Positions 13,262 through 29,733 are shown, counted from the whole stretch's first letter. The stretch is DNA of 63,956 nucleotides, filler included, from Rhabdomonas costata (GCA_019059605.1; 58 parts of 58 records of this genome joined end to end with filler, not necessarily neighbours in it); one strand, 5' to 3'. The notes: generated from the sequence alone by a model not told the origin. Numbers and translations: made by a program.

Positions 13262-13357
13262 GTTTTTGGGTCTTCCTCTTTTCTTTGGTTCTGCTGATTC
13301 TTCAGCACGTTCTTTTTCCTTTGTTTTATACATTGTTTCACCGCTTCGTGATGTCAT
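13262..13357 (-). CDS. Small ORF start (truncated by contig end) with an AT-hook-like motif; absent from the ORF track
   Basis: ATG at 13357 gives MTSRSGETMYKTKEKERAEESAEPKKRGRPKN. It is divergent from the ATPase. The last ~3 codons may be amplification-primer derived. Confidence 0.5.
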
Positions 13358-13399
13358 TTATAATTTAACGTGAGAAAAAATAATATAATATTATATTAA

Positions 13400-14065
13400 A
13401 TGGTAAAAAATAAATTTAAGTTACCAAATGAGATAATAAAGTTTAAATCCTCTGATAAAGATCATCATCAAAAACCTGATTATCATGATTTAGCCAATTG
13501 TTGTAGTCCTGTTTTTTGTGTTATTGCTGGAAATGTGAACTGTGGCAAGACATCATTATTAAAAAATCTACTTGTTCATAAAGAGCCACATTATGAAAGA
13601 ATTGTAGTATATAGTCCATTAGGTGAAGCCACAAATGAATACAGTGACGTTATCGATTGTGAGCTAATTGATTTTGTGCCTGATTTTGAATTTTTTGATC
13701 GTGAAGTTCGTAATTGTTTCATAGTCGAGGATTGCGATACTAAATCATTATCTAAAAATGATCGCTACACCTTGGGGCGGTTCTTTGGAGTCTACGCGTC
13801 GCATAATAACATAGATATTTACGTTATAAGCCAAAATGTATTTGATTTATTACCACAAATTCGAAGACTTGCAAATATTATATTTTTGTTTAAAAATAAT
13901 GATTTAGAATGCATGAAATCACTTGCTAAGAAATTTTCAATAAGATTAGAAGATTTAAAAGCAATATTTCATACATTTACAAAATATGATAGTCTTTGTA
14001 TTGATGATAGCAGAGAATCACTATATAGACTGCGTAAAAATATTTTTGAATTAATTCACGTCTAA
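13400..14065 (+). CDS. A32-like DNA packaging ATPase (FtsK-HerA superfamily) of Polinton/Polinton-like virus type
   Basis: Complete, intronless, AT-rich 221-aa ORF. Walker A GNVNCGKT (nt 13529), Walker B CFIVED, the H.N motif (ASHNN), SQ sensor (YVISQ), arginine finger (LPQIRR.AN) and a C-terminal hydrophobic-ID strand are all present. Confidence 0.9.
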   Translation: MVKNKFKLPNEIIKFKSSDKDHHQKPDYHDLANCCSPVFCVIAGNVNCGKTSLLKNLLVHKEPHYERIVVYSPLGEATNEYSDVIDCELIDFVPDFEFFDREVRNCFIVEDCDTKSLSKNDRYTLGRFFGVYASHNNIDIYVISQNVFDLLPQIRRLANIIFLFKNNDLECMKSLAKKFSIRLEDLKAIFHTFTKYDSLCIDDSRESLYRLRKNIFELIHV

Positions 14066-14093
14066 TTATATTCATTTGTAAGTGAATATAATT
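14064..14093. terminator. AT-rich hairpin between two convergent viral-type genes
   Basis: AATTATATTCA-(TTTGTAAG)-TGAATATAATT is a perfect 11-bp stem that fills the gap between the two TAA stops. A terminator role is inferred. Confidence 0.45.
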
Positions 14094-14266
14094 TAATAAA
14101 GAACATGTTTTAGAAAATTTCTTTTATGATCATCACTTGTATACAATTTGTCATCAATCATATAACCACTTCCACTTATTTTTTCTTTTACTAAATTCCA
14201 GATTTTGTCCAGCGCTGTTCCAGCAAGAGCTGAAATTACACCAACTGCTAAAGGTCCAACACCCCC
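14093..14266 (-). CDS. C-terminal part of a small Gly-rich, amphipathic protein (candidate virion core or membrane-active protein); absent from the ORF track
   Basis: Open from the contig end: GGVGPLAVGVISALAGTALDKIWNLVKEKISGSGYMIDDKLYTSDDHKRNFLKHVLY* (TAA 14095-14093). It converges on the ATPase. Confidence 0.6.
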   Translation of the reverse strand, partial: GGVGPLAVGVISALAGTALDKIWNLVKEKISGSGYMIDDKLYTSDDHKRNFLKHVLY

Positions 14267-16592
14267 NNNNNNNNNNNNNNNNNNNNNNNNNNNNNNNNNN
14301 NNNNNNNNNNTTAATTAATTAANNNNNNNNNNNNNNNNNNNNNNNNNNNNNNNNNNNNNNNNNNNNGTTGGTTTGGGCACAGGAACGCCTTGCTGTGTCT
14401 CATCTTTTTTTTCTAAGGTGCGGCATCAACGCATACAGCACATATTGCGACATCCTTTCTGCAGTGACAACTCGATCTGATGGGTCCATTGTGATGGAAT
14501 GTCCGACGAAATTTCCGACAACTCTGGTATAAGCCGGGACCCTAGAAGAGTGGTGTCATGGTGTCTGAAGAAAGAACTTTCAACAGAGACCCGACTTGCG
14601 GTTTGAGTTCAAGTGAAATTCAAGATTATTCAGGGGGTCAAAGCTTGCCTCGTCCTCTGGCAAAGGACATGGTTTTATATCGAGTTTAGAGAGCTCTATT
14701 CTGAGTGTGAGCTTCCAGATGTTTATGCACGGCTCTAGTATGTGGCTTTTTGGGTATTGCGCAGTGACCGACACTTTTTCTTCTGAATGACTTTCCGGTC
14801 ATAGTAAAAGTAATTGTTATAGTAATAGTATTAGGTCCAGTTTGGTTGGTTTTTCCCCAGCTAACTTCTATATAGCAAGTTTCCGATTATACATCCAGCC
14901 TTGCTTTTTCCCCGTCTTCCCCTGCAAGCGGATTTGGTGTTGGCATTCCCCCAATTGTGTTTAATTTTTACCAAAATACAGTGACACCTGGCTGTAGTGC
15001 AGTTGTGATAAACACACAATGCAAAAAGAAATATTTGAAAACAAAGCGCTTGTCAGTATCTCCTGGAGTCTACATTTGACGTTTCCTATGGCCGAAAGCA
15101 GGTAGAAGACGAGCACGCGTGCCCCAGGAGTGCGATGCTGGCACGGGATATCATGCAAGTTCCAATGGTGTCCGTTTGTGCACCCGAGGGAGGAGCACCT
15201 AGAGCAGACCCGCGCAGAGACGAACCCAGTGCGCAGAAGTACAAGCGGACCATCGAGCTTCGCAAGAAATCAAAGCCCCTATGCTAGGGCCAACGGGAAG
15301 CCAAAGTATTCGCAGACGCACCAGGGCAAAGAGTCAGTGAGGCAGCCTCGAGGTACCGGAGGCTCAGCGGANNNNNNNNNNNNNNNNNNNNNNNNNNNNN
15401 NNNNNNNNNNNNNNNTTAATTAATTAANNNNNNNNNNNNNNNNNNNNNNNNNNNNNNNNNNNNNNNNNNNNTTTTTTTTCATTGTTCGCTTTCGTCTGGA
15501 GACAGGGGGATGGTTGGACGGATGGGGGTTGTTGATGGAAGTGGTTAGATTGCACGGAGTCAGATACTCCGGGTGTACAGCATCGGTTGCAGGGCATCCG
15601 GTGCACGCGCGCGTTGTACTCTGCGAGTGTTGGCAAGTTAGCGTTGACAGCCACGACTTTCTCCTTGCTTTTTCTTCGCGAGAATTGCACTCTGCCCTTT
15701 TTTTACATTCATCGCTGTGCGCCGGTGGCATTGTCTCACCCAGCACAGTTTGTTTCTACCCTGCACAAAAGCTTGATTGTGACGCTGCCTCACTCTTCTG
15801 GGAGACCCCCAGGGTAAGATGTCCCTTTCCTGTTGGCACCGAAAAACTCTGTTTAGGGTAAACCAGCCATATGTGTGATAACATGCTTTCATGGGACTTC
15901 CATCGGACTCTGTTCTCAGGAGGAAAAAGAGATTACTGGGTCCTTTGTCGCCATCAACCAAAGCCTGTCCGACACATTGGCCAAGAAAAGTGCCGGGACT
16001 GAGGCTGTCCCGATTCGTTGCCTTTACGTGCAATGCCCCATTGGTGTTGGTACTCCGGAACAATGTTGTTGATTATCGGCTGAAGGAGGGGGAACGGGAA
16101 AATGTTTCAATATCCCCTCTTGAACAATCTGACCCACTGTGCGAACGGCGTATGTTTTCGCATTCTTTTCTTCCTGGTTGAGGTTACACAGGTCCGCATG
16201 CAAGTTTTTCTATCAAATGTTCACTGCTTCGAGTTTTCGCTCGTTTGTTGTCGGACTCCTCGCCTTCTTTCCAGGGTTTTTCCTCAGTCATAGATGACCA
16301 TTCCTTTTTCTCCCGTTTCTTCCCTTGGCATTTCGCCGAGCGGATTGCAACCTTCACCCAAGCGACCTACGTTGATACCTCAGTCGAGTGGTATCAATGC
16401 AGCGAATTCAGGTTCTACGACATCTCATCCGAATTAAAGTAGCTACACCGGTTTTCGATGATACCCACACAAACAANNNNNNNNNNNNNNNNNNNNNNNN
16501 NNNNNNNNNNNNNNNNNNNNTTAATTAATTAANNNNNNNNNNNNNNNNNNNNNNNNNNNNNNNNNNNNNNNNNNNNGTGTGGTGGGGTGCAG

Positions 16593-17554
16593 GTGAACAC
16601 CCGCGCGGGGAAGCGCTACGGGCACCCGGACTACGTTAGCTCCGGGTGTGGGGTAGGCCGGGAGGCCACGCTGTTCATGCTGCGGCAGGGCGTGCGGGTA
16701 ACGGGTACGGACGGGTGGTCCTGGGACGCCCCCTTCGTGCACACCGCACAGCGGTGGGAGCAGAGCAAGGACCCAGGGCTTATCTGGGAGGGGTGTGACC
16801 AATACTTGCGCGTTGCACCCTCGTCCTCCCCCCTCCCTCATCCCCTTGGTTCGGTCCAGCACTTGGATGGCTCGCGTCATCTCAAAAAGAAGAGTAAGGG
16901 GTACACAACAAACAGGTCGAAAAGGGGCCAAAACTCCTCCAGGTCCAAACCAGTTTTTTCACCACCCTTCTTAGCTTCTGAGTCTGCAAATGCCATATTT
17001 ATAATGCAGACTTTTTGAGGTGACGCGGACAACACAAACACACGCGCAAGACTGAGGTCATTGCTGCCTGTTTCGCCCGCCCACTTCGGCTGCGTCGCGG
17101 ACGGGCCTACTCGGCACGGTGGGCTGGCCCCGGCCTCCTAAACAAAACTGTCTCAGTTGTCCCGCAAAACCCTGCTACAGGCTCCGTTTTCTGTTACCTC
17201 TCGTATCCGTTAACCGCAACTCTAAGTCCTTTTAGAACCGATAATTGACCACTTTGCAATGGCGGTCACCAGTACAAAGACCGTACCCTTGAGCGGTATT
17301 CAGGATGGATGGATGGGAGCGTTGTGTCATCAAAGAACTTGCTTCACTTCCTCCTCGCCGCCGCGTGTTTTGAAATGTGTGGAAATTTTCGCAGTCACCG
17401 CGTGGGCCGAGAGATTGGGTACTGCCATCTGGAGAAGCTGCACAATCTGGAGGCCCTGCCTGCCACGGGGTTCATGGTGAGCTGTTTCCCCGTGAAGATC
17501 CGCGCGGCCTCTGCGGGATGGACCAGGGCGGTGGCGATCGTCGACGGGGCTTGA
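16593..17554 (+). CDS. Cyclase / kynurenine-formamidase-like metal-dependent hydrolase, 3' two exons
   Basis: Exon 16593-16792 (VNTRAGKRYGHPDY..GCGVGREAT..GVRVTGTDGWSWDAPF..LIWEG), then GT-AG intron 16793-17394, then exon 17395-17554 (HRVGREIGYCHLEKLHNLEALPATGFMVSCFPVKIRAASAGWTRAVAI..*). Splicing restores WEGH in frame. Confidence 0.9.
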
Positions 17555-20022
17555 GCTGATCGGATTTTTCCCCACCACACCNNNNNNNNNNNNNNNNNNN
17601 NNNNNNNNNNNNNNNNNNNNNNNNNTTAATTAATTAANNNNNNNNNNNNNNNNNNNNNNNNNNNNNNNNNNNNNNNNNNNNTGTTTTGTGGGTTCCCCCG
17701 CGCTCAATCACTGGGCTGCCAACGGCACCTGGAATAAAAACGAGCAAGGGGGAACCCGCAAAGGCGATATCTATTTCCGCTCATAATATTAAACTCGACT
17801 TACTATTGGCTCTTTGTCGAGTAATACGCACGGCACTTGAGGGAAAAAACGAAGCAGCCCTGGACCTATCAACCGGTGCGTCGCGCCGCTTTTCGGCAAT
17901 CAAGAATTTTACGGTTTGCTTTCTTTTTTATGAATACTACTTCATCATCAACTTGAAATTATAGAATACAGAAGAAAAAGAGAACCTCTGCAAAAAAGGG
18001 AATTCTTGCGTGGGCATCTACCTGCACCCTTTGAGGCTCTGCAGGGTCAGGTTTCGCGTTGCCACGCGGAAAAGACTCTCAAGAGAAGAAAATTCGGAAA
18101 GCAGAATTTCCTCTCAAGCTCAGAAATACTCAGCAATTCCACTCACCAATCCGTCTCGCCTGGCTGTTTAAAGGTTTGCCACAGCTAATGGCTTTTCCAT
18201 CGATAAAGGAAAGTGGAGTCAGGGGAACAGGAGAATGGTTGCCGATCTGGTCTCCAGATTAATTCGAGAAGCGTGCATTTTCTTCCTGAAGCGTGCATTT
18301 TCTGACCAGCACGTTGTCCCCACAAATCTACGAATCTGAAGTAATTTCTAAACCAGGTGTCCGATTTCAAATTTCCACAGAATCGGCCGTTGAACTGGTG
18401 TATAGAAGAATCGCACAAACCCCATAATTCTGGTAATGAATTGCACCCTTCCAGCTTTTGCACCGGTCTTTCACTCCATTGGAAACTGGCTTCCATAACA
18501 ATGAAGCAGAAGCGGGTGCAAACCAACCCAAAAAAAAACGGGAAAGGGGGAGGTCAACTCTGAACGCAAGGAACTGTGGGCCGTCCCCCCTCCGAAACAG
18601 AGGAAGAAAAGCGGAATCCCAAACGAAGACAGCACCACCAGCTCCGAGGCAGACTGAGCCTCCGCACCGCATCTTCCACAAAAACCNNNNNNNNNNNNNN
18701 NNNNNNNNNNNNNNNNNNNNNNNNNNNNNNTTAATTAATTAANNNNNNNNNNNNNNNNNNNNNNNNNNNNNNNNNNNNNNNNNNNNTGTGTGTGTGGCAA
18801 GTACAATTAGTGGGACACACTAACCGAACGTCATCACACGATTTTGATTCGCAGCGTTTGAACCGAGACACAAAAATCACGTGTGTGTGTGCGTGCGTAT
18901 GTGTTACTGTACGTGTACGTATATGGCGTATACGTATAGCATTTGGTTGTTGTGCACACATTACCTGCAACCATGGCCACTGGTAACGATGGAGCTAAGG
19001 TGGTGGAGAATCCGCACAGGTTGCTCAACTTCACACACTGAGGTGATATCGCGTTGTGGTGGGGCGAGTCATGTCATCAAGCCACAGGTTGGCCAAGGTG
19101 GTGTGACCCCATTCATCCATGGACACAACACCATAGTTACTACGCGTATACATCAACGTAGGGTGTGTTACCCTGTTAGTAGTGTAGCGAGTGTGTGCTA
19201 GTACCAGGTGTTGGGATAGGCGTATGGTTCATGCGAATGGTGTGGTAGGCTGCCAATGTACCGTGTTGTAACCATCCTTCGTTGTACCTGTACCTATTCC
19301 TTCACCCTGTGGTGTGGTTCGGCATCAACACTCCTAAGCTCTCAGCACCTCATGTAGAAGGAGGGTTAGAATGACGGTGCGTTAGTGTTGTGTTGCTGGT
19401 GCCTTCCCTGGTGGTGGTCAAGGCTACTACACAGAGGGTGATGATTCCCAACGGTGTAGCGACTGATGTTGGAGTGATGCTAAGTGGAGGGCGCCGATCC
19501 CGACATGTGCGTTGATGCCTTTCTCAGTGGTAGCACTCACAGCATCCATCATGGTACGTGTAGGTAGAAGCCTTGAGTGTCAAAGGTGAGACGTAAGGGA
19601 GTGATGGGATGCAAGGTTCGCTCCACCACCATAAGGATGGTTACGCTCACTGGGTCACACTCGCTCCTTGCTACGCAATGTCTCTCCTGTTCCTTGGTTG
19701 GTTCTGTCGGTCACACTCGCTCCTCTCACTGCGCTCGATGTCACTCCTGTTCCCTCCTTAGCCATGGTTCAACTGTCGTCACAACCACACCNNNNNNNNN
19801 NNNNNNNNNNNNNNNNNNNNNNNNNNNNNNNNNNNTTAATTAATTAANNNNNNNNNNNNNNNNNNNNNNNNNNNNNNNNNNNNNNNNNNNNGCATCAGAG
19901 GAATTCACAACAGCAAAAAAAAAAGAAGCATATCTTGGTTTGCGTTTTGAAAAAAAAAACAGAGCAAGCCCTCCTCCAGCAAAAGCCGCACGAAAGGTGG
20001 ACTACCGCCGCAGTGAAATTAC

Positions 20023-20833
20023 GCGCAAGCATGCCGACGTTATGCCCTGTTCGATTAAAGTGTCGATGACGTAGTGCCCTGCGGACCGAGAGTGGCAGTT
20101 CACAGGAAGGCCAAGTTCCTTGGCGACGCACAGCTGCTGCACAAACTGATGTTGCTGACGTTCTCTCCGCTGGGTTGCGACAGAGGGGTCCGCACCTGAA
20201 ACATGAAACATGAGCAACTCGACGCAAGAGGCGTGAAACACATACTGATGAACGCATAATCGCATGCAGCATTAACTTCGTCTTTTGAGCTCATAACGTG
20301 GAAGAACCACTGGTAGGGAAGAAAAAAGTCATAATGCACCTGAAAAGGTGGATCACAAGAGAAGATATATCTGAAACACGCGTTGGATGGTTACTCGGAC
20401 GGAGACCATCAAAGTCTTGTTGTGTTGTGTTGTCCACCACCTAAAAAGAATATATAATGTATATAATGCCTGCCCGGCTCTAGGCTCACAGAACGAACAT
20501 AGGATGACTCACAATACCCATGAACCTTTGATACCAAAGCTCACCGAAAACTTTATGCGCTCCTTGTTGGCTTCCCGCGCCTAAATTTCGCCAGCTAGGA
20601 CAGTCCCTTAGCAAAAAGCCAAAAGCTCTTGCTGCACCGAGAACGGCAGGAGTGAAGTCCAGTCCGATCTCCCCGACACAGGCTAGCCGCTCGTGGTGGC
20701 TTCGCAAGAGCTACAGCATCCCCGGAAGCTCGTCCGCTTCAGATGCGGGCAGGTCAGGTGCGGGGTGCAGTCCCGCACACGGGATGACAAAGGTGGGGTA
20801 CCGCTCTGCAAGACGAAGCACCTCGTGAGCATC
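20023..20833 (-). pseudogene. tatD: TatD-family DNase (TATDN3-like), two exons, with an in-frame TAG
   Basis: Exon 20833-20638 reads ..CAGLHP..GML*LLRSHHERLACVGEIGLDF. Exon 20195-~20023 reads ..QLCVAKELGLPVNCHSRSAG. The GLHP, GEIGLDF and HSR motifs are present. TAG is at 20713-20711. Pseudogene versus error versus recoding is unresolved. Confidence 0.6.
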
Positions 20834-23800
20834 CTGAACACCCCACAACATCACCAACAAGAGGTGGTCTAGGTCATCTAGCCCGTGCCCAACACCNNNN
20901 NNNNNNNNNNNNNNNNNNNNNNNNNNNNNNNNNNNNNNNNTTAATTAATTAANNNNNNNNNNNNNNNNNNNNNNNNNNNNNNNNNNNNNNNNNNNNGGTG
21001 TTTAGCAAGATAGTTTCCATGGTCTTTCGCTTTCTCCTTCACGACAACATGCTCCACGTCGCCGTTTGCAATCTGTGCAAGAAAAATGGGGACAAGTTGC
21101 CTTTTCTTTCACCGCAATGGCCTGAAGTCACACTATCCTGAGACACGGACAATTTGGTTTTGCCAACCAAAAACAACCTACATTTGTTCAGCCCGATTCG
21201 CCTTTGGGATAGGATTGTCTCCAGCCACCGCCTGGGAAGGCGAAAGGACGGCAGCCCTGCAAACTTAATTTACCACACCTTTCGTGCCAACTTGGGGTCG
21301 GCACTATGCTCTCAGTTCGTCTCCTTGGAACCTCACGTGGATCAAGCCTGGCGATATGTCAGCTGCCTCCCTTCAAAGCAAAAGACCATGGAAACTATCT
21401 TGCTAAGCACCCGACGGGACTTGCACTCCTACTTCACAGAAGCACTCGGCCCCTTCCAGCAAACCGAAATTCCTGCTCGCAGGAAGTCACTGCAATGGAC
21501 GAGTTGCTCCGCTCCCCTGGAAAGGAAACGTGCGCCCTTCCTTCTCCAACTACAAAGAGACGCCCAACTGCAGGAACCCCTTTCTGGTTGTTTCCTCAGC
21601 ATCTACACCCATCTCTCAACGGCGCAGCGACTGCACTTGTGCACGCAGTCATGGCGACTCCTCCTCTAAGAGCGTTTATATTGAACTACTCCAACTCCGG
21701 GAACTCAGACCTCCTTGCGCTGCACAACACTGTCTCACGCCTCTGGGATGGAGATTGCATTCCACTGAAAGACTGGAGAACCCTGGAATCAGCACTTTCG
21801 GTTGGAGGACACCCTGGAGCGCTAATGCAAAGAATACAAGGCCGGTTTCTGTCCCCAACATTTTGAGACGCAATGCGTGTCGGATTCCAGATCAAAGCCT
21901 TTCGCCAATGCCGCGCTCACCCTCTGGACAAGCTCTTCCATGCCCCAATCCTGATCCTCGGAAGCCACACGCCTCCAGAAAGCTCTGGAACCACCAAAAC
22001 CNNNNNNNNNNNNNNNNNNNNNNNNNNNNNNNNNNNNNNNNNNNNTTAATTAATTAANNNNNNNNNNNNNNNNNNNNNNNNNNNNNNNNNNNNNNNNNNN
22101 NTTTTTTTTTTCTTCCGGCAGATTTTTTTCACGTGGGGGAATTTTCGCGTGGGTGTATAAGTTTCGCGTTTTCTGCATTTCCGTGTGTGTGTGTGTGTGT
22201 CGGCCTTCTAGAGTGGGTTAGGTACGTAGGGTGGGGTGGTGACTTTGGGGCTAATTTTCGCGTTGGTATTTGTTTTTCTGTCTCCGTTGCTGTCTCCGGT
22301 TCCGGTTCCTGTGTCTGATTAGGCCTTCGTTACTTAGGGTGTGTTTTGGGGTACCTTCCTGCTTTTTTGTCTTTTCCACTTCCTTCCCACTCCTTGCTCT
22401 CACTGTATCGCTCGGGGGTCTTGCCCTTCTCTCTCTCCGGTTCCTCCTTCTCCACCATTTCCATCTATCGCTTTGCTTTTCTGCCGGGCAGGGTGTCGTG
22501 TATTCGGGATGTGTTTTTCCAGGCTTGCCTCGGTCAGATGTTCTTGCTTTTCCTTCCCCTTCCTCATCAACTTTCTTCCCATTCAACTGCTCCCATATAT
22601 CTCTCATGACTTTTTTCACTGGCTTTATCCAAGTGCACCGCTTCTTTATCTACTCTTGAGCTTTTCTGAATTCCCATATCATCGACAGAATTTATCTCTG
22701 CTATTGCAGCAACAACGCCCTCCTCTCTTCTCAACTCAAGAGCTGAACTTCCAATCTTTAGCGGGTTAATCATTCCTCGCAATTCTCGTATGTCAACCAC
22801 TTTCTCTACTCCGTCGAAAATGACTCTCAAAATTATTGACCACTGCAAACGCCAACGTGTTCTTTATCTTTTTATTTTAGTTGTCATGTTTTTATCAGTT
22901 TTTACTGCTTCGATAATAAATATACACAATGAAAACGGTTGGATTAAATGTGAGCTCTCCAGCGCAATAACTTCTAATCATACCATTGTTAGTGGATTCT
23001 CATGATTAATTTATATGATTTTGTGTATGCATACCTTTTGGCCATCAGGAGAGAACATTAACTACAAAATATGGTTACATCACTGGTTTTAATATGCTAA
23101 TGGGNNNNNNNNNNNNNNNNNNNNNNNNNNNNNNNNNNNNNNNNNNNNTTAATTAATTAANNNNNNNNNNNNNNNNNNNNNNNNNNNNNNNNNNNNNNNN
23201 NNNNGGTTGGGGGGCCTGCGGTAGTCCAGGACGACCAGCGGAGGCTGGTTGTGCGCCACCACCCACTCCAGGCTGAGCGGGGGTGAGGCCGACGAGGATG
23301 AGGAGCTGGCGTTGCCGTCCTGCGTAAAAAAAAGAGGAGGGCTGCGACGAGGTCATCACTTTGGGATGGGAACTGGGGAAAATTAGCGGGGAGGAAGATG
23401 AGCTTCTTGGAAATTCTTAAACGGCGGTGTGTGGGTTATGGTGATCTTCGTATGGCGATATAATAATAAAAGAAAAAAGAGCCAAATATATTGGCGCTGC
23501 TTCTGCAAAAGGTGCCTCACAGTTCCCATTTGTGCATGCATACACATTTAACTTTTGCCTTTTACTCTTCATCCACATGTCAGCACTACTGCTACAATAC
23601 TAGAATGATGTTGTCATGCTTATAGCGGGGGAGCACCATCCTCCCTTCAGTACTTTAGTCCCTTAGCACAGCTTTAGGATTCGCCCACGCCCGCAAAAAA
23701 AAATAGACAACGCAGAAGGCACTACAGAACTTTATTCGCCGAGTGCTCTGCAAAGCTGCAATCGGGGTAAAGGCACGCAAGGCAAGCAGCGCCATGGATT

Positions 23801-24309
23801 TTATCTTTATCTGCTGTGCTGCTCTCTGTGGCCTTCACACACCCTCACACACACACACGTACACACCGCGAAGGTGAGCTGCATGGCGGTAGGTAGGTCC
23901 CCCACAGACACCTCCACCGCGCCAGAGCAAGCCTCGGGCCGCATCGGGGATGCAGTCTGACTTCCCTGAAAGCACGCACACATCGACGTCCAAACAAGAC
24001 CGCACTCCTTAACCCCAGCGCACCACAAAACATAAGCGGCAGAGGCCACTTCGCCACAGAGTAATCACAAAAAGAAGGGTCTTCACAGAAACATTGCTTG
24101 CACGAGGCATACCTGAGATCTTCCTTCCGCTTTTTGTGGGTACCGTGGAGTGAATCCAAAGAGCCGGTTTAAAGGAGCTCGAACTTACGAATATAGACAA
24201 AAAACACTCNNNNNNNNNNNNNNNNNNNNNNNNNNNNNNNNNNNNNNNNNNNNTTAATTAATTAANNNNNNNNNNNNNNNNNNNNNNNNNNNNNNNNNNN
24301 NNNNNNNNN

Positions 24310-25131
24310 GGGTGGGGGGGTGCAGGACGTGTGGGCTGATGCTGAGGGTACCTGGGGGCATGTGCACCTACCACCCCTATCGCATGACCCTACCCCTCTG
24401 AGGCAGACCCTGATCTCGGCATAGCACCCCACCCCACTTCCGCCTGACCCCGGGTCTGCCCATTGGCATGCACCGCCGCTGGACCATCCGCATCCTCCCT
24501 GAAGTGGGTCTGCCCTTCCTCGACGTCTGGAAGGCCCACTTGGGCGACCTCGTTCGCCGCGAAAGCTCAGCTGTGGCCACAGGCCCCCGTCGCGTGGGCC
24601 CTCCCCCCCGCGCCAAGCGCGAAGTGAGTTCCCGGGCGCGCACCAACGCCCCTCCTCCACCCTACCACACCTTGGAGGAGCGTGTCAAGCGCCTTCGCCA
24701 TCGTCTCCACCGAGGTCCTTGTGGAGGGCTCCAGACACTCTTCCCTCCGCGTCCCGTCTCACTGCCTCCTCATCCACCAGCAGCTAGGCCTTCCGCGCCC
24801 TTCCCCGACTGCTCACGGTCGCCGCTTCCGCGTCTTCCGTGTCGTCATTGTTGGCACTAGGCGCAGAAGCGGGCGGAGCACTCCACTCCCGGTCCCATTC
24901 CACAAAGGCGGGAACGGCGGGCTCCCAGCACACCGCTGGGCCTGTCGACCGACCCCCCTCCTCATGTAAATCTCCCTAACCCCCTGCGAGATCTATTTAT
25001 TTCGTCCTCCGGGCAGGTGGATACACTGCTCCAGAAGTGCCTTATATTTATAAAATTTATTACTTATAAAAAATATATAGTTGGGAGCGTCGGTGGAGAT
25101 TAGATTAGATTAGATTAGCAAATTAGATTAG
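24310..25131 (+). mobile_element. Possible degenerate retroelement 3' end with a (TTAGA)n tail
   Basis: GC-rich, stop-interrupted coding-like sequence followed by an AT-rich stretch and TTAGA repeats at ~25097-25131. No diagnostic RT motif is visible. Confidence 0.25.
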
Positions 25132-26519
25132 TTCTTTCCAATCCTGATTGCCGCCGACCTCCGGATGGATCTGCTCAGCAGCGGTACGGGAAGGAGGAGG
25201 GGTACCCAGTGGGAAGTTGTAAATGCAAACGTAGCCAATTATTATTCAAATAGCTTTGTACGGACACATGAAATCAGGTTGCGCGTAGACGACGTGCATA
25301 ATACCCCCCCAACCNNNNNNNNNNNNNNNNNNNNNNNNNNNNNNNNNNNNNNNNNNNNTTAATTAATTAANNNNNNNNNNNNNNNNNNNNNNNNNNNNNN
25401 NNNNNNNNNNNNNNGTGGGTGGTGAGCAGGCGCCGTCAGACGGCCCACAAGAAACCTGCACCGAAGTCTCACGGCGCCTGCTCTCCACCTGCAACGAACA
25501 GACAGAAGACCATCGCGGATGCACAACATGAGAAATCCCTGTAACCTCAGGGAACGACGCATTGAAACGAGTCGGGCGAATAGGGTTGGTGACAAAAACC
25601 GTACTCCAGAGTTACATGAATTTTTAACTTTGTTCAATATTACTCTGATGCAGAGAGAAAGCTCGTTCATTCTCTCGGAAATCATTCTGCGAATCGCACC
25701 AAATCCTGAAGTCCATGCAGCAGGTGAGGACGCAGGTGCCAGGAAACGGCACTGGACGGAGGAGACACGAGAAATGGAGGAGCGATGAACCCATCCCCAC
25801 CCCAGCAACAAACTGCAGACGAACTTTTTCGGCGGTGCAGAAAAAAGCCTTCCCACTTGTCTCCTCGTCGGAAACCATCACGGGGTGGACACCTGGGTGC
25901 AATACTAGCGGCAAGATGGAGATGAGCAACCTTCTCCCATATACAACAAAATCCGAAATAGTTGCCAAAAACGCACCTGCGCAAGCGAGTGCGAAAAACA
26001 GTCAGTTAAGTGACCGTGAGCCCGACAGTACAAAAAATGGGGGCCTATATACCTTTTTAAAGAAGCAAATGCACACAACAACTAAGCAACTAAGCCGTAG
26101 AGCAAGAGTAGAGCAAAAGCGGAAACGCAGAGCAACACTTTCACCTACCTCCCAGACCCAAAACACCAACACTCATCAATATTAAACTCCGCAAAGCACC
26201 CACACACCTCTTCCGAAGGCCATCGATGGAAACCCTGGGCTCGAGGCTGGTGTGAAGTCGCTCTCTCCCGAAAAGCCCCTTCCAGCCACGGGATGGTCGT
26301 TTCCCTGAACTAATGGCACCGCAGCTGGAGCAGCAGCCCCAGTGCCAGTGTGCAGCCCCTTCTCCGACGCAGCCTGAGCGTTGTGCGCGAGCTGGATGAC
26401 AATGCCCTCCTTCATATTGNNNNNNNNNNNNNNNNNNNNNNNNNNNNNNNNNNNNNNNNNNNNTTAATTAATTAANNNNNNNNNNNNNNNNNNNNNNNNN
26501 NNNNNNNNNNNNNNNNNNN

Positions 26520-27524
26520 GGGTTTTTTGCAAGAATATTTGATAATTGGTCTTATGAAAATCGTTATATTGCTGGCGCTGATTTCACAGTAACAACTGAT
26601 TCAGCTTCTGGTTATCCTCTTATTACCTATCAAAAAGTTTTCGGTAATATATTATACAATCAATTGAATTTATTATTGTATGAAGCATATAGACGATTAT
26701 ATCCTGTTATTCGAGATCAAAATAATGTTATTATTACGGATGGAACAAATGCAATAACTTTAACAAGCACATCATGTGGTTACACAATTTCGCAATTACA
26801 AGATGTTGTAACTACTAATTTAACTACTGGTCATGTACTTGTGTACACATTAGGAAATGTCGAAACTGGTGGTTATAAATGGAGAAATAGAACATTATTG
26901 ACATCAGATATAACTAATTTAGTTAATTTAATTATAAATTTAGTTAATTTAATTAGTTAATTTAATCATAAATTCTAAACCTCAAGCAAACGGTCTAGCA
27001 TCGTTAGATTCGAACGGAAAATTAAACACTTCTCAAATCCCTAGTTTATCATTAACTAATGTAACATCTGTTAACACAATAGCACAACGAGACGCATTAA
27101 CAGCAGATGAAGGAGATGTTTGTATTGTGACAAATGATAGTACAAGTACAAATAATGGTTCCTATATCTATAATGGAACAGGCTGGTCAACACTTTCATT
27201 ATATGTAACTCCCATTCATTTATCGTCATTAACTGATGTTTCGCTAGGTACATTAGCAAATAATCAAGCTCTTGTGTACAATACAGCAAGTACAAAATGG
27301 GTTAATGTAACGTTAACAAGTTCATATTTATCGGATTTTAATATATCGAGCCCAGCTAATAATAATGTTCTTGTATATAATTCTGCGACTTCAAAATGGT
27401 TAAATTCAGCTGTTCCAGTCTATATTTCAACATTATTAGATTGTTCAATCAGCGGAGCATCTGACGGCCAATTATTAAAATACAGTTCTTCATTATCAAA
27501 ATGGGTTAATTATACACCACCAAC
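26520..27524 (+). CDS. Viral fibre/tail-fibre-like repeat protein (partial, frameshifted at ~26940)
   Basis: AT-rich and intronless. Four L..L.DV.....ngqvLvY.....KW.N repeats (ISQLQDVV..GHVLVY..KWRN; LSSLTDVS..NQALVY..KWVN; LSDFNI..NNVLVY..KWLN; ISTLLDCS..GQLLKY..KWVN), plus ANGLASLDSNGKL..SQIP and TIAQRDAL...GD motifs of phage/virus fibre proteins. Confidence 0.75.
26919..26973 (+). repeat. Imperfect triple tandem duplication (21+13+21 bp)
   Basis: TTAGTTAATTTAATTATAAAT / TTAGTTAATTTAA / TTAGTTAATTTAATCATAAAT. Removing 34 bp fuses the two ORFs (..SDITNLVNLIINSKPQANG..). Confidence 0.85.
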
Positions 27525-27624
27525 NNNNNNNNNNNNNNNNNNNNNNNNNNNNNNNNNNNNNNNNNNNNTTAATTAATTAANNNNNNNNNNNNNNNNNNNN
27601 NNNNNNNNNNNNNNNNNNNNNNNN

Positions 27625-28628
27625 GGTGGTGCCTGAAAGAAAATTCCTGTTGGATTTCTGCATCTGAAGCAGAAAGATCAAATGAATGGCAACCAATTAA
27701 ACACCCTTCAGTGGCTGCCCCAGTGAATCGCAACCAAAGCATCGTTCTGGCCTCCTGCAGGCAAATGGCAAGTCGATCCCGCTGCTCCTGAAGGGCAAGC
27801 ACACTCCATCGCTGACTCTGGAGTGCTATAGAGACCTTTTCGAGAGCCCTCTTCAACTCTGCCTCCTGGAAACATTTCGTGTCTAGAGTAACGTTGACGT
27901 CCCTCAGACACTGCTGTGTCTGCAGGAGCTCAGCCTCTTTTGCCTCAAGCTGCCGTTCCAGTTCGCGGCGGCAGCTCTCGACGCTCTGCATCCTAGAAAT
28001 CTCCTCCGCGGCTTGCTGCCTCAACTCGAGGAGCTCGCTGGCACACCCCTGAACATTTTGGGAAGAGCTGGCTTGAGGGTCAGCGATCTGCTCGGTGACC
28101 CGAGAGAAGGCCTGCAGGATCTCAAGCTCCGCGTTGCGGTACGAGAGCTGTTCCAGCTCGCGAGCTGTTTGGGCAGTGGCACTACGAAGCGTTTCCACCT
28201 CAGCGGACATCTTGGAAAGCTGCTCCTCCAGAAGAGCCTCCTGGTGACATTTCTGCTCGAGCAAGGCGGTGCAGCTTGACAGCTCCTCCTGAAGTTGGGC
28301 GACCTGGGCGCCCATTCCCTGCCCGTCGGTGAGGCCGGGCTCATCCTTTCTACAATTTCCACGCGTGCTGAGCTCGCGAGTGAAAGACGTCAACTTGGCC
28401 TCCACCTTTTCTAGGTACCCCTGAAAGGCTTGCTTCAAAGCCAACTCAGCAGGCTGGGTTCTAGCCGAGCCCTTCCAGCCTGGAGACCTTTCCTCAAGCA
28501 AACCCTCAAGTGCGTGGTATGCATCACTGAGTTGACCTAGTCTGGCCAGATAGTCCACATTTTTCAACCTGAGTTGTGCAGCTTCTTCCCGAGCTTCCTC
28601 GAGAGCCTTCGCAGCCCCCCAACCAACA
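27625..28628 (-). CDS. Long coiled-coil protein (partial)
   Basis: Uninterrupted ORF of over 300 codons rich in E/Q/L heptads, with a repeated 'KC(H/F)QEA.L' motif. Confidence 0.7.
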
Positions 28629-28743
28629 NNNNNNNNNNNNNNNNNNNNNNNNNNNNNNNNNNNNNNNNNNNNTTAATTAATTAANNNNNNNNNNNNNNNN
28701 NNNNNNNNNNNNNNNNNNNNNNNNNNNNGGTTTGGTTGTATAT

Positions 28744-29733
28744 TTACATCAACATCTTCAATGCCTCTTGAGCACTAATACGATTCATGTAATTTACAAC
28801 TAACATTTTTTCTAGTACTTCGATCATTTCTTCCGGTATGATTGGTTTGAGTTTGTCCCAAAATTCACATTCTAGATAAAAAATATTATCACTTGTACCA
28901 TTTTTAAAGTTTGTCATGATATTCTTCCAGTACAAACTCGTCTTTATCTCATGTGCTTCCGGTAGTCCTAATGTTCTCAAGATTGTATCCATCTTTTTAT
29001 AAGATGATACTGTAATATCATCCGTTTCTATTGTAAATACTGGTTTATGTGTAAATAATTCAATGATAATACAGCCCAAAGACCATATGTCACAAATTGC
29101 AGTTTTAATAATTCCCATTAGTTCCTCGGGCGATTGATAGATTGCAAATGTTTTTGTTTTATCTTCAAATTTATATATACACACATCTCTTTCAAAACTA
29201 GTACCAATATTGATTTTAATTTTATTATTTTCTACGACGAATGTTCTAGGTGTAATATTCCCGTGATATGTATTATTACTATGCATGAATGCAAGTGAAC
29301 TTAATATCTCCATTACATTTCGTTTTATTGTTTTATAATCCAATTCTACATGATGTTGTATCAATGGATAAACAGATGGTTTATCATATGTATCAATTAT
29401 ATTTGTACAAATCATTATCTTATTTTGATCACCATAATTAAATGTATGAATGTACTCATCACATTTATTTGTTAATTGTGTCAAACTAATTGCATTCTTT
29501 GTATCTATATTTTTTTCAATATCTTGAATATAGATTGTCTTATAATGATAATATCCATTGTATGTATATGGTACATCTAATCTAGAATTTTCTTCATTCA
29601 ATGGTGTCGTTGGTTCATCCATTTCTTGTTCTTGATTTTCTTCAGGTGTATCTTGACTCTTTTCATTATGTGATTCATCTTCAACATAAGATAAATTTTC
29701 ACCTTCAGCTTCTGCTAATGATGAAATTTCATC
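28744..29733 (-). CDS. AT-rich, intronless CMGC-like pseudokinase with an acidic N-terminal region (5' truncated)
   Basis: Frame is open from the contig end (DEISSLAEAEGEN..) to TAA. C-lobe motifs YQSPEE, DIWSLGCII.EL, LGLP and LEKML....NRISAQEAL are present. HRD is replaced by HGN, and no DFG or VAIK is visible. Confidence 0.8.
   Translation of the reverse strand, partial: DEISSLAEAEGENLSYVEDESHNEKSQDTPEENQEQEMDEPTTPLNEENSRLDVPYTYNGYYHYKTIYIQDIEKNIDTKNAISLTQLTNKCDEYIHTFNYGDQNKIMICTNIIDTYDKPSVYPLIQHHVELDYKTIKRNVMEILSSLAFMHSNNTYHGNITPRTFVVENNKIKINIGTSFERDVCIYKFEDKTKTFAIYQSPEELMGIIKTAICDIWSLGCIIIELFTHKPVFTIETDDITVSSYKKMDTILRTLGLPEAHEIKTSLYWKNIMTNFKNGTSDNIFYLECEFWDKLKPIIPEEMIEVLEKMLVVNYMNRISAQEALKMLM

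Follow-up and report, generated by a model that had tools for sequence, protein, structure and literature searches.

The window, a stretch of 63,956 nt from Rhabdomonas costata (GCA_019059605.1), consists of 58 unlinked contigs of 1001–1007 nt each, joined by spacers of the form N44 + TTAATTAATTAA + N44. Its bulk represents an intron-bearing eukaryote genome of ~52% GC with short exons. Three contigs, located at 13262–14266, 26520–27524 and 28729–29733, clearly depart from this background with GC contents of 0.296, 0.306 and 0.286, respectively, compared with a mean of 0.517 (sd 0.032, range 0.428–0.594) for the remaining 55, which corresponds to z-scores of −6.6 to −7.3. A principal component analysis of trinucleotides likewise groups the three (PC1 of 0.098–0.105), while all 55 others lie at or below 0.032. 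By composition, the three do not belong to the eukaryote genome that makes up the bulk of the window and are foreign DNA. Their longest open reading frames (ORFs) span 221, 190 and 329 codons, respectively, and none of 1000 shuffles per contig gave an ORF as long (shuffle maxima of 123–143). The initial annotation had described the three contigs as very AT-rich, wall-to-wall coding and intron-free; these values bear out the first two points, while the lack of introns stands within each contig and extends to 1 kb of each only. The contigs lie near each other in the window because the concatenation was, in our reading, apparently sorted by the size of the pieces.

The first AT-rich contig (13262..14266, both strands) carries three genes, which account for 936 of its 1005 nt. 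The only complete one (13400..14065, + strand) encodes a 221-aa protein which, based on profile, Atlas and motif evidence, is a genome-packaging ATPase of the A32/FtsK-HerA type, the type found in polinton-like viruses (PLVs). The packaging ATPase named in the initial annotation is thus confirmed. Its Walker A (GNVNCGKT) and Walker B (CFIVEDCD) motifs and the RR pair at residues 155–156 are conserved across 17 aligned relatives. In the comparison of the family profile with the PDB, the B204 packaging NTPase of STIV was the sole match below E = 1e-3 (E = 5e-4, 22.8 bits). The nearest Atlas clusters, based on language-model features, carry Pox_A32 (score 0.99), and weak matches were obtained to Adeno_IVa2 in Pfam and to a PHROG terminase; the Pfam Pox_A32 family did not match at E ≤ 1. 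In total, 80 relatives with 39–87% identity were found, of which the intact full-length ones measure 217–227 aa. For the seven closer relatives, pN amounted to 0.11–0.15 and pS to 0.67–0.84, indicating that the ATPase is under strongly purifying selection.

Diverging from the ATPase gene, another gene begins on the − strand (13262..13357), the first 32 codons of which encode a basic segment containing KKRGRPKN. No relative and no Pfam or PHROG match was found for this segment. A 12-nt palindrome, TATAATATTATA, is situated at 13384..13395, its end being 4 nt from the start codon (ATG) of the ATPase. Relatives keep it at the same place, which makes it a candidate for a promoter or operator specific to this gene.

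The third gene (14093..14266, − strand) comprises the last 57 codons and the stop of a PLA2X-like virion protein, with 68% identity to the C-terminus of the protein encoded at 1304-2020(−) on the related metagenomic contig L011. This piece has a hydrophobic helix together with a tail of basic character; the PLA2 domain lies past the contig end. In the L011 protein, the N-terminal part matches PF08398 (Phospholip_A2_4) with E = 1.1e-8 and 35.7 bits, above the cut-off of 23.9. Two of the three members tested exceeded this cut-off (L011, and L005 with 25.1 bits), while L010 remained below it with 18.5 bits. The Ca-loop (Y.GPG) and the catalytic motif (HD..Y) are visible in the alignment of the relatives, so the domain that defines PLA2X is present in these, with the window contributing the C-terminal 57 residues only. 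A PLA2-like virion protein termed PLA2X is known from polintons and adintoviruses, according to the available portion of PMC8502044.

The ATPase contig is part of a metagenomic, AT-rich lineage that is widespread but uncatalogued; the gene neighbourhood of this lineage was surveyed in 33 loci with ATPase relatives (GC 0.23–0.37). All 80 relatives sit on contigs of at most 4.8 kb. A PLA2-like gene adjoins the ATPase in nine of these loci as well as in the window, and a GIY-YIG nuclease insert occurs in three. A capsid-sized protein of 492 aa, absent from the window, is encoded in four loci; in L003, L004 and L026 its gene is the second one downstream of the ATPase. Neither Pfam, including its NCLDV capsid families, nor a sequence search of the PDB gave a significant match to this protein. 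A penton-sized protein of 263 aa, also absent from the window, was found in L022 and in L011, here beside a fibre gene, and has no significant Pfam match (best E = 0.027). The AlphaFold (AF2) models of both candidates were unusable, with pLDDT of 36 and 31, respectively. Neither a polymerase, an integrase or a protease nor a terminal repeat was seen; the longest related contig measures 4.8 kb. Pfam detected no NCLDV family in the three AT-rich contigs or in 22 ORFs that neighbour the ATPase in related loci, and an NCLDV gene was seen in none of the 33. Scanning IMG/VR with the ATPase, capsid-candidate and PLA2X queries gave no relative, which leaves the lineage without a tie to a named virus.

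The second AT-rich contig (26520..27524, + strand) is a fibre ORF from end to end, namely an inner portion of the gene that spans at least 336 codons and is open at both ends. It contains four repeats of ~33–35 aa (L.D....L..N..LVY....KW.N) and matches, down to E = 1e-12, 14 PHROG families whose members are tail, fibre or virion proteins, in agreement with the fibre-repeat protein proposed earlier. The reading frame is broken once, with the first frame stopping at 26960 and the next open from 26953; the shift occurs inside a degenerate tandem repeat (26911..26974, + strand) with units spaced 21 and then 13 nt. The fibre shares 57% identity over 100 aa with that of L011, where the genes are ordered ATPase, PLA2X, 263-aa gene and fibre, and where the fibre gene lies ~1.7 kb from the ATPase. 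This single locus provides the link between ATPase and fibre. The best match is a 2093-aa protein of two T7-like phage contigs, L034 and L035 (60% over 122 aa), which also matches the N-terminal part of the fibre with 37–39% identity. In both phage contigs this protein lies between capsid and tail-tube genes, within a Caudoviricetes structural module, whereas L011 has the ATPase/PLA2X module instead. Three cultured-phage records gave weaker matches, and among 185,579 prokaryote species (one genome each) only relatives of 29–34% identity were found. The codon usage of the fibre correlates with that of the pooled ATPase-lineage genes with r = 0.92, above 95% of the lineage's own genes, while all 12 chunks of phage L035 gave lower values (r of 0.61–0.85). 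Since L011 carries the ATPase, PLA2X and a penton-sized gene together with a related fibre, the window fibre would most simply be the small virus's own. It is most likely a phage-derived modular fibre and not a giant-virus protein, and would serve for receptor binding in an element of the kind to which the ATPase contig belongs.

The third AT-rich contig encodes the C-terminal 329 codons and stop of a CDK-like protein kinase (28744..29733, − strand), with an acidic low-complexity stretch on the N-terminal side. The kinase fold is recognized by Pfam Pkinase (PF00069) with E = 7.6e-18 and 65.3 bits, above the cut-off of 31.7. Alignment to CDK8 shows that HRD is replaced by HGN (157–159), the catalytic-loop Asn by Thr164 and DFG/DMG by NIG (175–177). 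The N-lobe gave no match, and neither a Gly-loop nor a VAIK match was seen in the Pkinase and CDK8 alignments. Active kinases carry a VAIK Lys and a Gly-rich loop besides the HRD Asp, the loop Asn and the DFG Asp, the last three of which are replaced here; the protein is a catalytically dead CDK-like pseudokinase, in accordance with the degenerate kinase of the initial annotation. Among 1.84 billion representatives, the best relative had E = 8.7e-23 at 23% identity and none exceeded ~40% identity. The nearest named relatives are eukaryotic CK2/CDK proteins (23–34% identity), including one from an AT-rich dictyostelid, and the best solved ones are CDK8, CDK2 and CDK1. Its codon usage (r = 0.825) is close to the median of the ATPase lineage and inside the phage range, and does not discriminate between them.

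The fate of the fibre and kinase contigs is where alternatives have to be weighed. The T7-like phage protein matches the fibre equally well (60%), and therefore a phage origin remains a rival, in which the fibre contig, unrelated to the ATPase contig, would stem from a tailed phage whose AT-rich bacterial host was either an associate of the eukaryote or a contaminant. The PHROG families, the N-terminal similarity and the cultured-phage records fit this origin. Nevertheless, we regard it as unlikely: the phage has 37% GC compared with 30.6% for the fibre contig, its codon usage is less similar, the prokaryotic relatives are distant, bacterial-type genes were looked for on the other 55 contigs and none seen, and the same module occurs in the ATPase lineage (L011). 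In addition, PLVs use phage-like fibres, as stated in the available part of PMC12220804. For the kinase, it is possible but doubtful that the contig is non-viral and comes from the nuclear genome of a second eukaryote, one that is AT-rich and present as prey, symbiont or contaminant. This origin would agree with the eukaryotic CMGC relatives and with the acidic N-terminal stretch, since AT-rich protists commonly have stretches of this kind. Furthermore, no kinase relative occurred in any viral locus (0 matches in 41 fetched loci, compared with 80 relatives for the ATPase). It is opposed by the virus-like nature of the only other two AT-rich contigs, by the failure to see AT-rich housekeeping genes within the window, by the 990 nt of kinase contig without an intron, and by the lack of a relative above ~40% identity among 1.84 billion representatives, which would be unusual for a conserved cellular CDK.

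The initial annotation had proposed a tripartite association, in which the ATPase contig belongs to a PLV or virophage, while fibre and kinase come from an AT-rich giant virus (Nucleocytoviricota) co-infecting the same host cell. The low GC common to all three contigs and one Nucleocytoviricota-labelled Atlas cluster near the kinase (rank 7, score 0.95) speak for it, and algal mimivirus-type viruses have ~25–32% GC and many kinases. A natural system of alga, giant virus and PLV has been reported for Tetraselmis in the accessible text of 10.1101/2025.10.09.676808. Of this proposal, the foreign composition and the PLV-type ATPase stand, but a giant-virus partner appears improbable. Searching the window for NCLDV core genes gave no marker, the 96 ORFs of the other 55 contigs yielding five Pfam matches at E ≤ 1e-5, none of them viral. 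The fibre relative sits near the ATPase on a contig of the ATPase lineage, phage-like fibres are described for PLVs in the available parts of PMC12220804 and 10.1101/2022.07.28.501842, the kinase has its best named relatives in eukaryotic CK2 and CDK, and the proposal requires a second virus without positive evidence for one. Because most of the named Atlas clusters nearest to it bear the label Nucleocytoviricota (Pox_A32 being found in 14–98% of their members), the ATPase alone cannot separate a PLV from a giant virus. All three contigs could then belong to one AT-rich giant virus, free or endogenised, with the ATPase as its A32 protein and no PLV involved. The uniform composition would suit such a virus, as would the amount of AT-rich DNA, which would exceed one 20–40 kb element if 3 of 58 contigs at this length mirrored the whole assembly. 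We consider this very improbable, given the short ATPase, its neighbours (a PLA2X-like protein as in polintons and adintoviruses, plus a capsid-sized one without a Pfam NCLDV capsid match), the contigs of at most 4.8 kb carrying all relatives and the absence of NCLDV genes from the surveyed loci.

With somewhat better than even confidence, we favour a combined reading in which the contigs are foreign, the ATPase contig is a fragment of PLV/polinton type, the fibre likely belongs to the same kind of element and the kinase is a dead CDK-like protein. As a single small polinton-like virus seems to account for the ATPase and fibre contigs, and the remaining one appears to be an orphan dead kinase, no giant virus is needed. 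The ATPase contig would be a fragment of a small dsDNA virus or of an integrated element of the polinton-like supergroup. In such an element, the 221-aa ATPase would fill a preformed capsid with the linear genome, the PLA2X-like protein would travel in the virion and open the endosomal membrane during entry, and the fibre protein would bind the receptor. The pseudokinase, if viral, may act by binding and not by phosphorylation, for example as a cyclin or substrate decoy or as a scaffold.

In comparison with known systems, the kinase shares with the CDK family the CMGC-type C-lobe and the DIWSLGC and RISAQEAL motifs, but the catalytic Asp, catalytic-loop Asn and metal-binding Asp of CDKs are all replaced, and its identity to known kinases of at most ~40% covers short stretches only. 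Clusters of Tribbles pseudokinases are among its Atlas neighbours. The fibre contains modules 60% identical to those of the L034 and L035 tailed-phage fibres and the same ~33-aa repeat, but the module order differs, and GC and codon usage are nearer to the ATPase lineage. STIV B204 and poxvirus A32 share the P-loop core and a similar size (210–260 aa) with the ATPase. A conserved SHNNIDxYVISQNVYDLLPQIRRLAN block of the family aligns to the C-terminal half of B204, although the similarity is marginal (22.8 bits). As far as the available descriptions of adintoviruses and polintons go, their PLA2X resembles the L011-type protein in its N-terminal parvovirus VP1-type PLA2 (PF08398), its hydrophobic and basic C-terminal domain and its position beside virion genes; adintoviruses, however, infect animals, and of the PLA2X-like protein just the final 57 residues fall inside the window.

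PLVs are characterized by a double jelly-roll major capsid protein (MCP) and a single jelly-roll penton, or minor capsid, protein. Their genomes of ~14–40 kb often have terminal inverted repeats and encode replication or integration genes (pPolB, primase-helicase, integrase or Yrec). In the ATPase lineage, the MCP and penton are not recognizable by sequence, the lipase is a parvovirus-type PLA2 instead of an alpha/beta hydrolase, and no replication or integration gene was seen on contigs of at most 4.8 kb. Nevertheless, the window and its lineage share with the protist PLVs, such as PgVV-14T of Phaeocystis and the endogenous ones of cryptophytes and Halocafeteria, a short A32-type ATPase, compact genes on both strands, GIY-YIG nuclease inserts, a lipid-hydrolysing virion-type protein and a long phage-like fibre, within the extent of the published excerpts. 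According to the available text of 10.1101/2022.07.28.501842, PgVV-14T has genes for A32, GIY-YIG, mCP and MCP, as well as for a tail-fibre-like protein that is present in its virions. The GC of the AT-rich contigs, ~20 points below that of the host, also corresponds to the values given in the accessible parts of two reports, namely 14–28 points from the host for PLVs with bacteriophage-like fibres (PMC12220804) and 34% GC for endogenous PLVs in a 47% GC host (10.64898/2026.07.28.741278). Published endogenous or multi-copy PLVs of protists have a GC below that of their hosts and break up into short contigs. Low-GC polinton-like elements in protist-type genomes are a kind already known, of which the one proposed here would be a new member.

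The window is not a single locus but consists of 58 contigs of 1001–1007 nt each, separated by spacers of N44, TTAATTAATTAA and N44. Since these contigs were joined artificially, their adjacency within the window is uninformative on linkage, and the trio studied here is unlinked, as the initial annotation had stated. The GC content is 0.296 at 13262–14266, 0.306 at 26520–27524 and 0.286 at 28729–29733, while the remaining 55 contigs have a mean of 0.517 (sd 0.032, range 0.428–0.594), which places the trio at z = −6.6 to −7.3. In a trinucleotide principal component analysis, the three contigs group at PC1 0.098–0.105, compared with at most 0.032 for the other 55. Their longest open reading frames (ORFs) span 221, 190 and 329 codons despite the stop-rich composition, and none of 1000 shuffles per contig matched the observed ORF length (shuffle maxima 123–143). 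The earlier description of the trio as AT-rich and largely coding is thus confirmed by GC content, ordination and shuffling. An all-vs-all blastn comparison of the 58 contigs showed neither mutual overlap nor a common repeat among the three, and no GC step or host junction was found within them. Organelle DNA was rejected as their source, since organelles do not encode genes of the kinds seen here (a kinase, a packaging ATPase and a fibre). An origin from ciliate nanochromosomes was likewise rejected, because the ATPase contig carries three genes on both strands and all ORFs are open in the standard code.

The remaining 55 contigs look like those of an intron-bearing eukaryote. Five of their 96 ORFs of at least 100 aa match Pfam at E ≤ 1e-5, mostly through small parts of domains of eukaryotic type (TIP49, ribosomal S13/S18, Memo, ASD1 and cyclase), and no viral or full-length bacterial-type domain occurs among these matches. 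Scans of the whole window for Rfam families and tRNAs gave no result. One contig of host-like GC (0.56), at 27625–28628 (−), is a single unbroken ORF of 334 codons from end to end; it has no Pfam match at E ≤ 1e-5 and is unusual among the surrounding short-exon contigs.

Coding sequence occupies 936 of the 1005 nt of the first AT-rich contig. It comprises the first 32 codons of an unassigned minus-strand gene (13357 to 13262), a complete plus-strand ORF of 221 aa (13400–14065), and the last 57 codons of another minus-strand gene (14266 to 14093). The 221-aa protein contains a Walker A motif (GNVNCGKT) and a Walker B motif (CFIVEDCD). As a single sequence, it gave only sub-threshold Pfam matches (ATPase_2 and Adeno_IVa2), a PHROG match to 'terminase large subunit' at E = 7.3e-5 and a match to the genome-packaging NTPase B204 of STIV at E = 0.15. 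A profile of 17 relatives matched STIV B204 in the PDB at E = 5e-4 and 9.5e-4, the only PDB matches of this profile below E = 1e-3. By language-model features, the nearest ATPase clusters are Pox_A32 (0.99); most of them carry the label Nucleocytoviricota and one Preplasmiviricota. The ATPase had no match at E ≤ 1 among 50,697 phage records. Judged by its motifs and relatives, the protein is a packaging ATPase of the FtsK-HerA/A32 (poxvirus-type) kind, and the B204 profile match together with the Pox_A32 clusters bears out the function originally proposed. The ATPase by itself does not discriminate between a small and a giant virus. The minus-strand gene diverging from it (13262–13357) begins with a basic peptide including KKRGRPKN, which we take to be AT-hook-like; it has no relative among the 33 metagenomic loci related to the ATPase, where another gene occupies this position.

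A word-indexed search returned 80 relatives of the ATPase at 39–87% identity, none informatively named and all on contigs of at most 4.8 kb. The metagenome scan yielded 33 related loci of 1.0–4.8 kb with a GC content of 0.23–0.37 and 66–80% DNA identity to the window. Compared with nine relatives, the ATPase shows pN of 0.11–0.35 (0.11–0.15 for the seven closer ones) and pS of 0.67–0.84, the latter being saturated. These values indicate that the family is old and under strong purifying selection rather than a set of decaying copies.

The gene set around the ATPase was defined by clustering every ORF of the loci. One cluster of phospholipase A2 (PLA2)-like proteins occurs in nine loci and in the window, where it includes the minus-strand C-terminal fragment, which is 68% identical to the member in L011, a 3415-nt metagenomic locus (GC 0.32). 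Full-length members match Phospholip_A2_4, the PLA2 domain of parvovirus VP1, with 35.7 bits (E = 1.1e-8) for L011, 25.1 bits for locus L005 (above the cut-off of 23.9) and 18.5 bits for locus L010 (below it), and their C-terminus consists of a hydrophobic helix and a basic tail. According to the available text of Starrett et al. (PMC8502044), which credits PLA2X to Yutin, Raoult and Koonin 2013, a PLA2 domain with such a C-terminus characterizes PLA2X, a virion protein of adintoviruses and polintons. A GIY-YIG nuclease (PF01541, E = 3.6e-6) lies beside the ATPase in only three of the 33 loci (L001, 685–1248, −; L029, 719–1180, −; L031, 788–1345, +) and resembles a mobile homing-endonuclease insert. 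Further recurrent genes encode a low-complexity protein of 313–445 aa, a capsid-sized protein of 492 aa (four loci, for example L004, 3243–4718) and a penton-sized protein of 263 aa (two loci). Neither of the latter two has a significant match in Pfam, or one by sequence in the PDB where this was searched. Their AlphaFold models, built from only three sequences for the capsid candidate and two for the penton candidate, reached pLDDT values of 36 and 31, respectively, too low for a meaningful fold comparison. Scans of IMG/VR with the ATPase (as single sequence and as profile), with the capsid candidate and with PLA2X recovered no relative.

The order of genes near the ATPase varies even among loci whose ATPases are 70–88% identical: some have PLA2X upstream and co-oriented with the ATPase, others downstream and in opposite orientation. 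Together with the absence of any contig above 4.8 kb among the 80 clusters, this points to frequent rearrangement, to elements present in multiple copies or to chimeric assembly. Multi-copy insertion and microdiversity have been described along with low-GC polinton-like viruses (PLVs), at least in the accessible portions of PMC12220804 and 10.64898/2026.07.28.741278, and would also account for the assembly of the present lineage only as short contigs everywhere.

A 12-nt palindrome, TATAATATTATA, is located at 13384–13395 and ends 4 nt short of the start codon of the ATPase gene. Allowing one mismatch, it is found directly upstream of this start, at a distance of 2–24 nt, in the window and in at least 15 of 23 sources covering the start (loci L002–L006, L008–L016 and L029). 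It is often doubled or arranged as an inverted pair flanking TCTA, and is almost missing elsewhere in the 63 kb of loci. It is regarded as a candidate gene-specific promoter or operator.

The second AT-rich contig is an ORF throughout, in two frames that overlap at 26953–26960. The change of frame occurs within a degenerate tandem repeat (26911–26974) with units spaced 21 and then 13 nt, where the peptide NLVNLII occurs in about three copies; it may represent a slippage mutation, an assembly or amplification artefact, or a pseudogene. The encoded protein contains four repeats of about 33–35 aa, whose copies in the DNA are 99 and 105 nt apart, and matches 14 PHROG families for tail, fibre or virion proteins (best E = 1e-12), in line with its previous designation as a fibre-repeat protein. 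Its relatives in the large protein collection are unnamed and thus offer no taxonomic information. In L011, an unassigned gene (−) is followed by the ATPase (550–1233, +), PLA2X (1304–2020, −), the 263-aa gene (2043–2834, −) and a fibre gene starting at 2887 (+), whose product is 57% identical to the window's fibre over 100 aa (E = 2e-23). L011 is the sole locus that reaches past the 263-aa gene. The best overall match is a 2093-aa protein, 60% identical over 122 aa, with a further match of the N-terminal part at 37–39%, encoded between capsid and tail-tube genes on two IMG/VR contigs of 29.6 and 65 kb (L034, 5080–11361; L035, 5880–12161). Both contigs are T7-like phages, with a portal protein (PF12236, E = 1.9e-73), a T7 scaffold, an HK97-type capsid protein (E = 1.5e-50) and tail tube proteins, and neither is matched by the ATPase profile. 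With the L011 fibre, the phage protein shares modules at 40% identity. Since both it and L011 match the window's fibre, this module is common to tailed phages and the ATPase lineage.

The third AT-rich contig is filled by a kinase ORF open at its 5′ end (28744–29733, −), which matches Pkinase (E = 7.6e-18) at profile positions 61–260 only. Its best solved relative is CDK8 (E = 2e-13), whose HRDLKPAN motif reads HGNITPRT here, while NIG stands in place of DMG/DFG. The window's protein has thus lost the catalytic Asp, the Asn of the loop and the metal-binding Asp and retains the CMGC-type C-lobe motifs. These substitutions mark it as a CDK-like pseudokinase and substantiate the 'degenerate kinase' of the initial annotation. 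None of 985 candidates from a word-indexed search reached E ≤ 1e-5. When 1.84 billion representatives were searched exhaustively, 3829 matched at E ≤ 1e-3 and none at E ≤ 1e-30, the best having E = 8.7e-23 and 23% identity, with identities of 23–40% among the matches listed. Ten of the matches were looked up; six belong to named clusters, all of them common proteins of eukaryotes (chytrid CK2 alpha, an arachnid CDK9, a plant CDK, and nematode, dictyostelid and lamprey proteins).

The economical reading is that at least two of the three contigs stem from a single type of small polinton-like virus or integrated element. Their GC content lies about 20 points below that of the eukaryotic host, and comparable offsets appear in the accessible text on cryptophyte PLVs (14–28 points from host, PMC12220804) and on Halocafeteria (34–35% in elements vs 47% in the host, 10.64898/2026.07.28.741278). 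The fibre probably comes from the type of element that carries the ATPase. Derivation of its contig from a phage would be favored by the T7-like protein being the closest match; however, the phage has a GC content of 37% compared with 30.6%, no bacterial genes were seen on the other 55 contigs, and fibre relatives from cultured phages and prokaryote genomes are only 29–43% and 29–34% identical, respectively. Moreover, the codon-usage correlation of the fibre with the pooled genes of the ATPase family (r = 0.92) exceeds that of 95% of these genes themselves and of all 12 phage chunks (0.61–0.85); this constitutes weak evidence for a PLV origin. We consider a phage source unlikely.

For the kinase, codon usage (r = 0.825) is close to the median of the ATPase family's genes and was rejected as a discriminator, since this value also falls inside the phage range. 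The kinase has no match in the 41 loci, no PLV-encoded kinase was found in the literature, insofar as its text was available, and 'kinase' occurs zero times in the accessible text of the cryptophyte PLV paper (PMC12220804). Carriage by the same PLV-like element can be advanced only tentatively, and so can some other source. Another AT-rich eukaryote, with which the eukaryotic relatives would agree, is somewhat unlikely, and carriage by a giant virus is improbable. The initial annotation had put forward, as a hypothesis only, that the trio represents a tripartite host/PLV/giant-virus system. Such systems exist, as described in the available part of a Tetraselmis preprint (10.1101/2025.10.09.676808), but this reading is improbable here; it has no positive support in the window, because the fibre and kinase contigs have other, better or equally good, explanations. 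The initial interpretation is thus partly supported: the evidence favors a polinton-like element with its packaging ATPase, and lends no support to assigning the other two contigs to a giant virus, given the related fibre in L011 and the eukaryotic kinase relatives.

In the economical reading of a polinton-like element, the ATPase would package the genome, PLA2X would breach the endosomal membrane and the fibre would bind a surface receptor, as expected from their families. The element may be integrated, episomal or a free virion. It is a rather speculative extension that the whole trio represents one uncatalogued PLV lineage, widespread in environmental metagenomes and absent from IMG/VR, that unites a parvovirus-type PLA2 protein for entry, a modular fibre derived from phages and a CDK-like pseudokinase. 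The pseudokinase might then serve a small protist virus as a cell-cycle decoy.

Low-GC polinton-like elements are recognised and common in protist genomes, so the main result is ordinary in itself; it flags foreign viral DNA within a fragmented eukaryote assembly. Since the ATPase lineage has neither Pfam annotation nor an IMG/VR relative in our scans, a common environmental virus group, represented by 80 ATPase clusters under purifying selection, appears to be uncatalogued. Its parvovirus-type PLA2 protein is rarely reported in protist PLVs: a survey identifying 2,355 PLVs mentions one such enzyme in its available text (10.64898/2026.05.28.728513). The fibre module, at 57–60% identity between the window and, respectively, the ATPase lineage and a T7-like phage, provides a concrete example of recent sharing between bacterial and eukaryotic viruses. 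The orphan pseudokinase is of interest only if linked to a virus, in which case it would be a gene class with no report found in the accessible PLV literature. Combined, the lineage is PLV-like by gene content and is not anchored to a named virus. Its gene set, in which the two capsid genes are candidates only, matches the content of the PLV PgVV-14T, which, according to the available text (10.1101/2022.07.28.501842), encodes an A32 ATPase, a GIY-YIG nuclease, a virion protein that hydrolyses lipids, both a minor and a major capsid protein and a protein resembling tail fibres.
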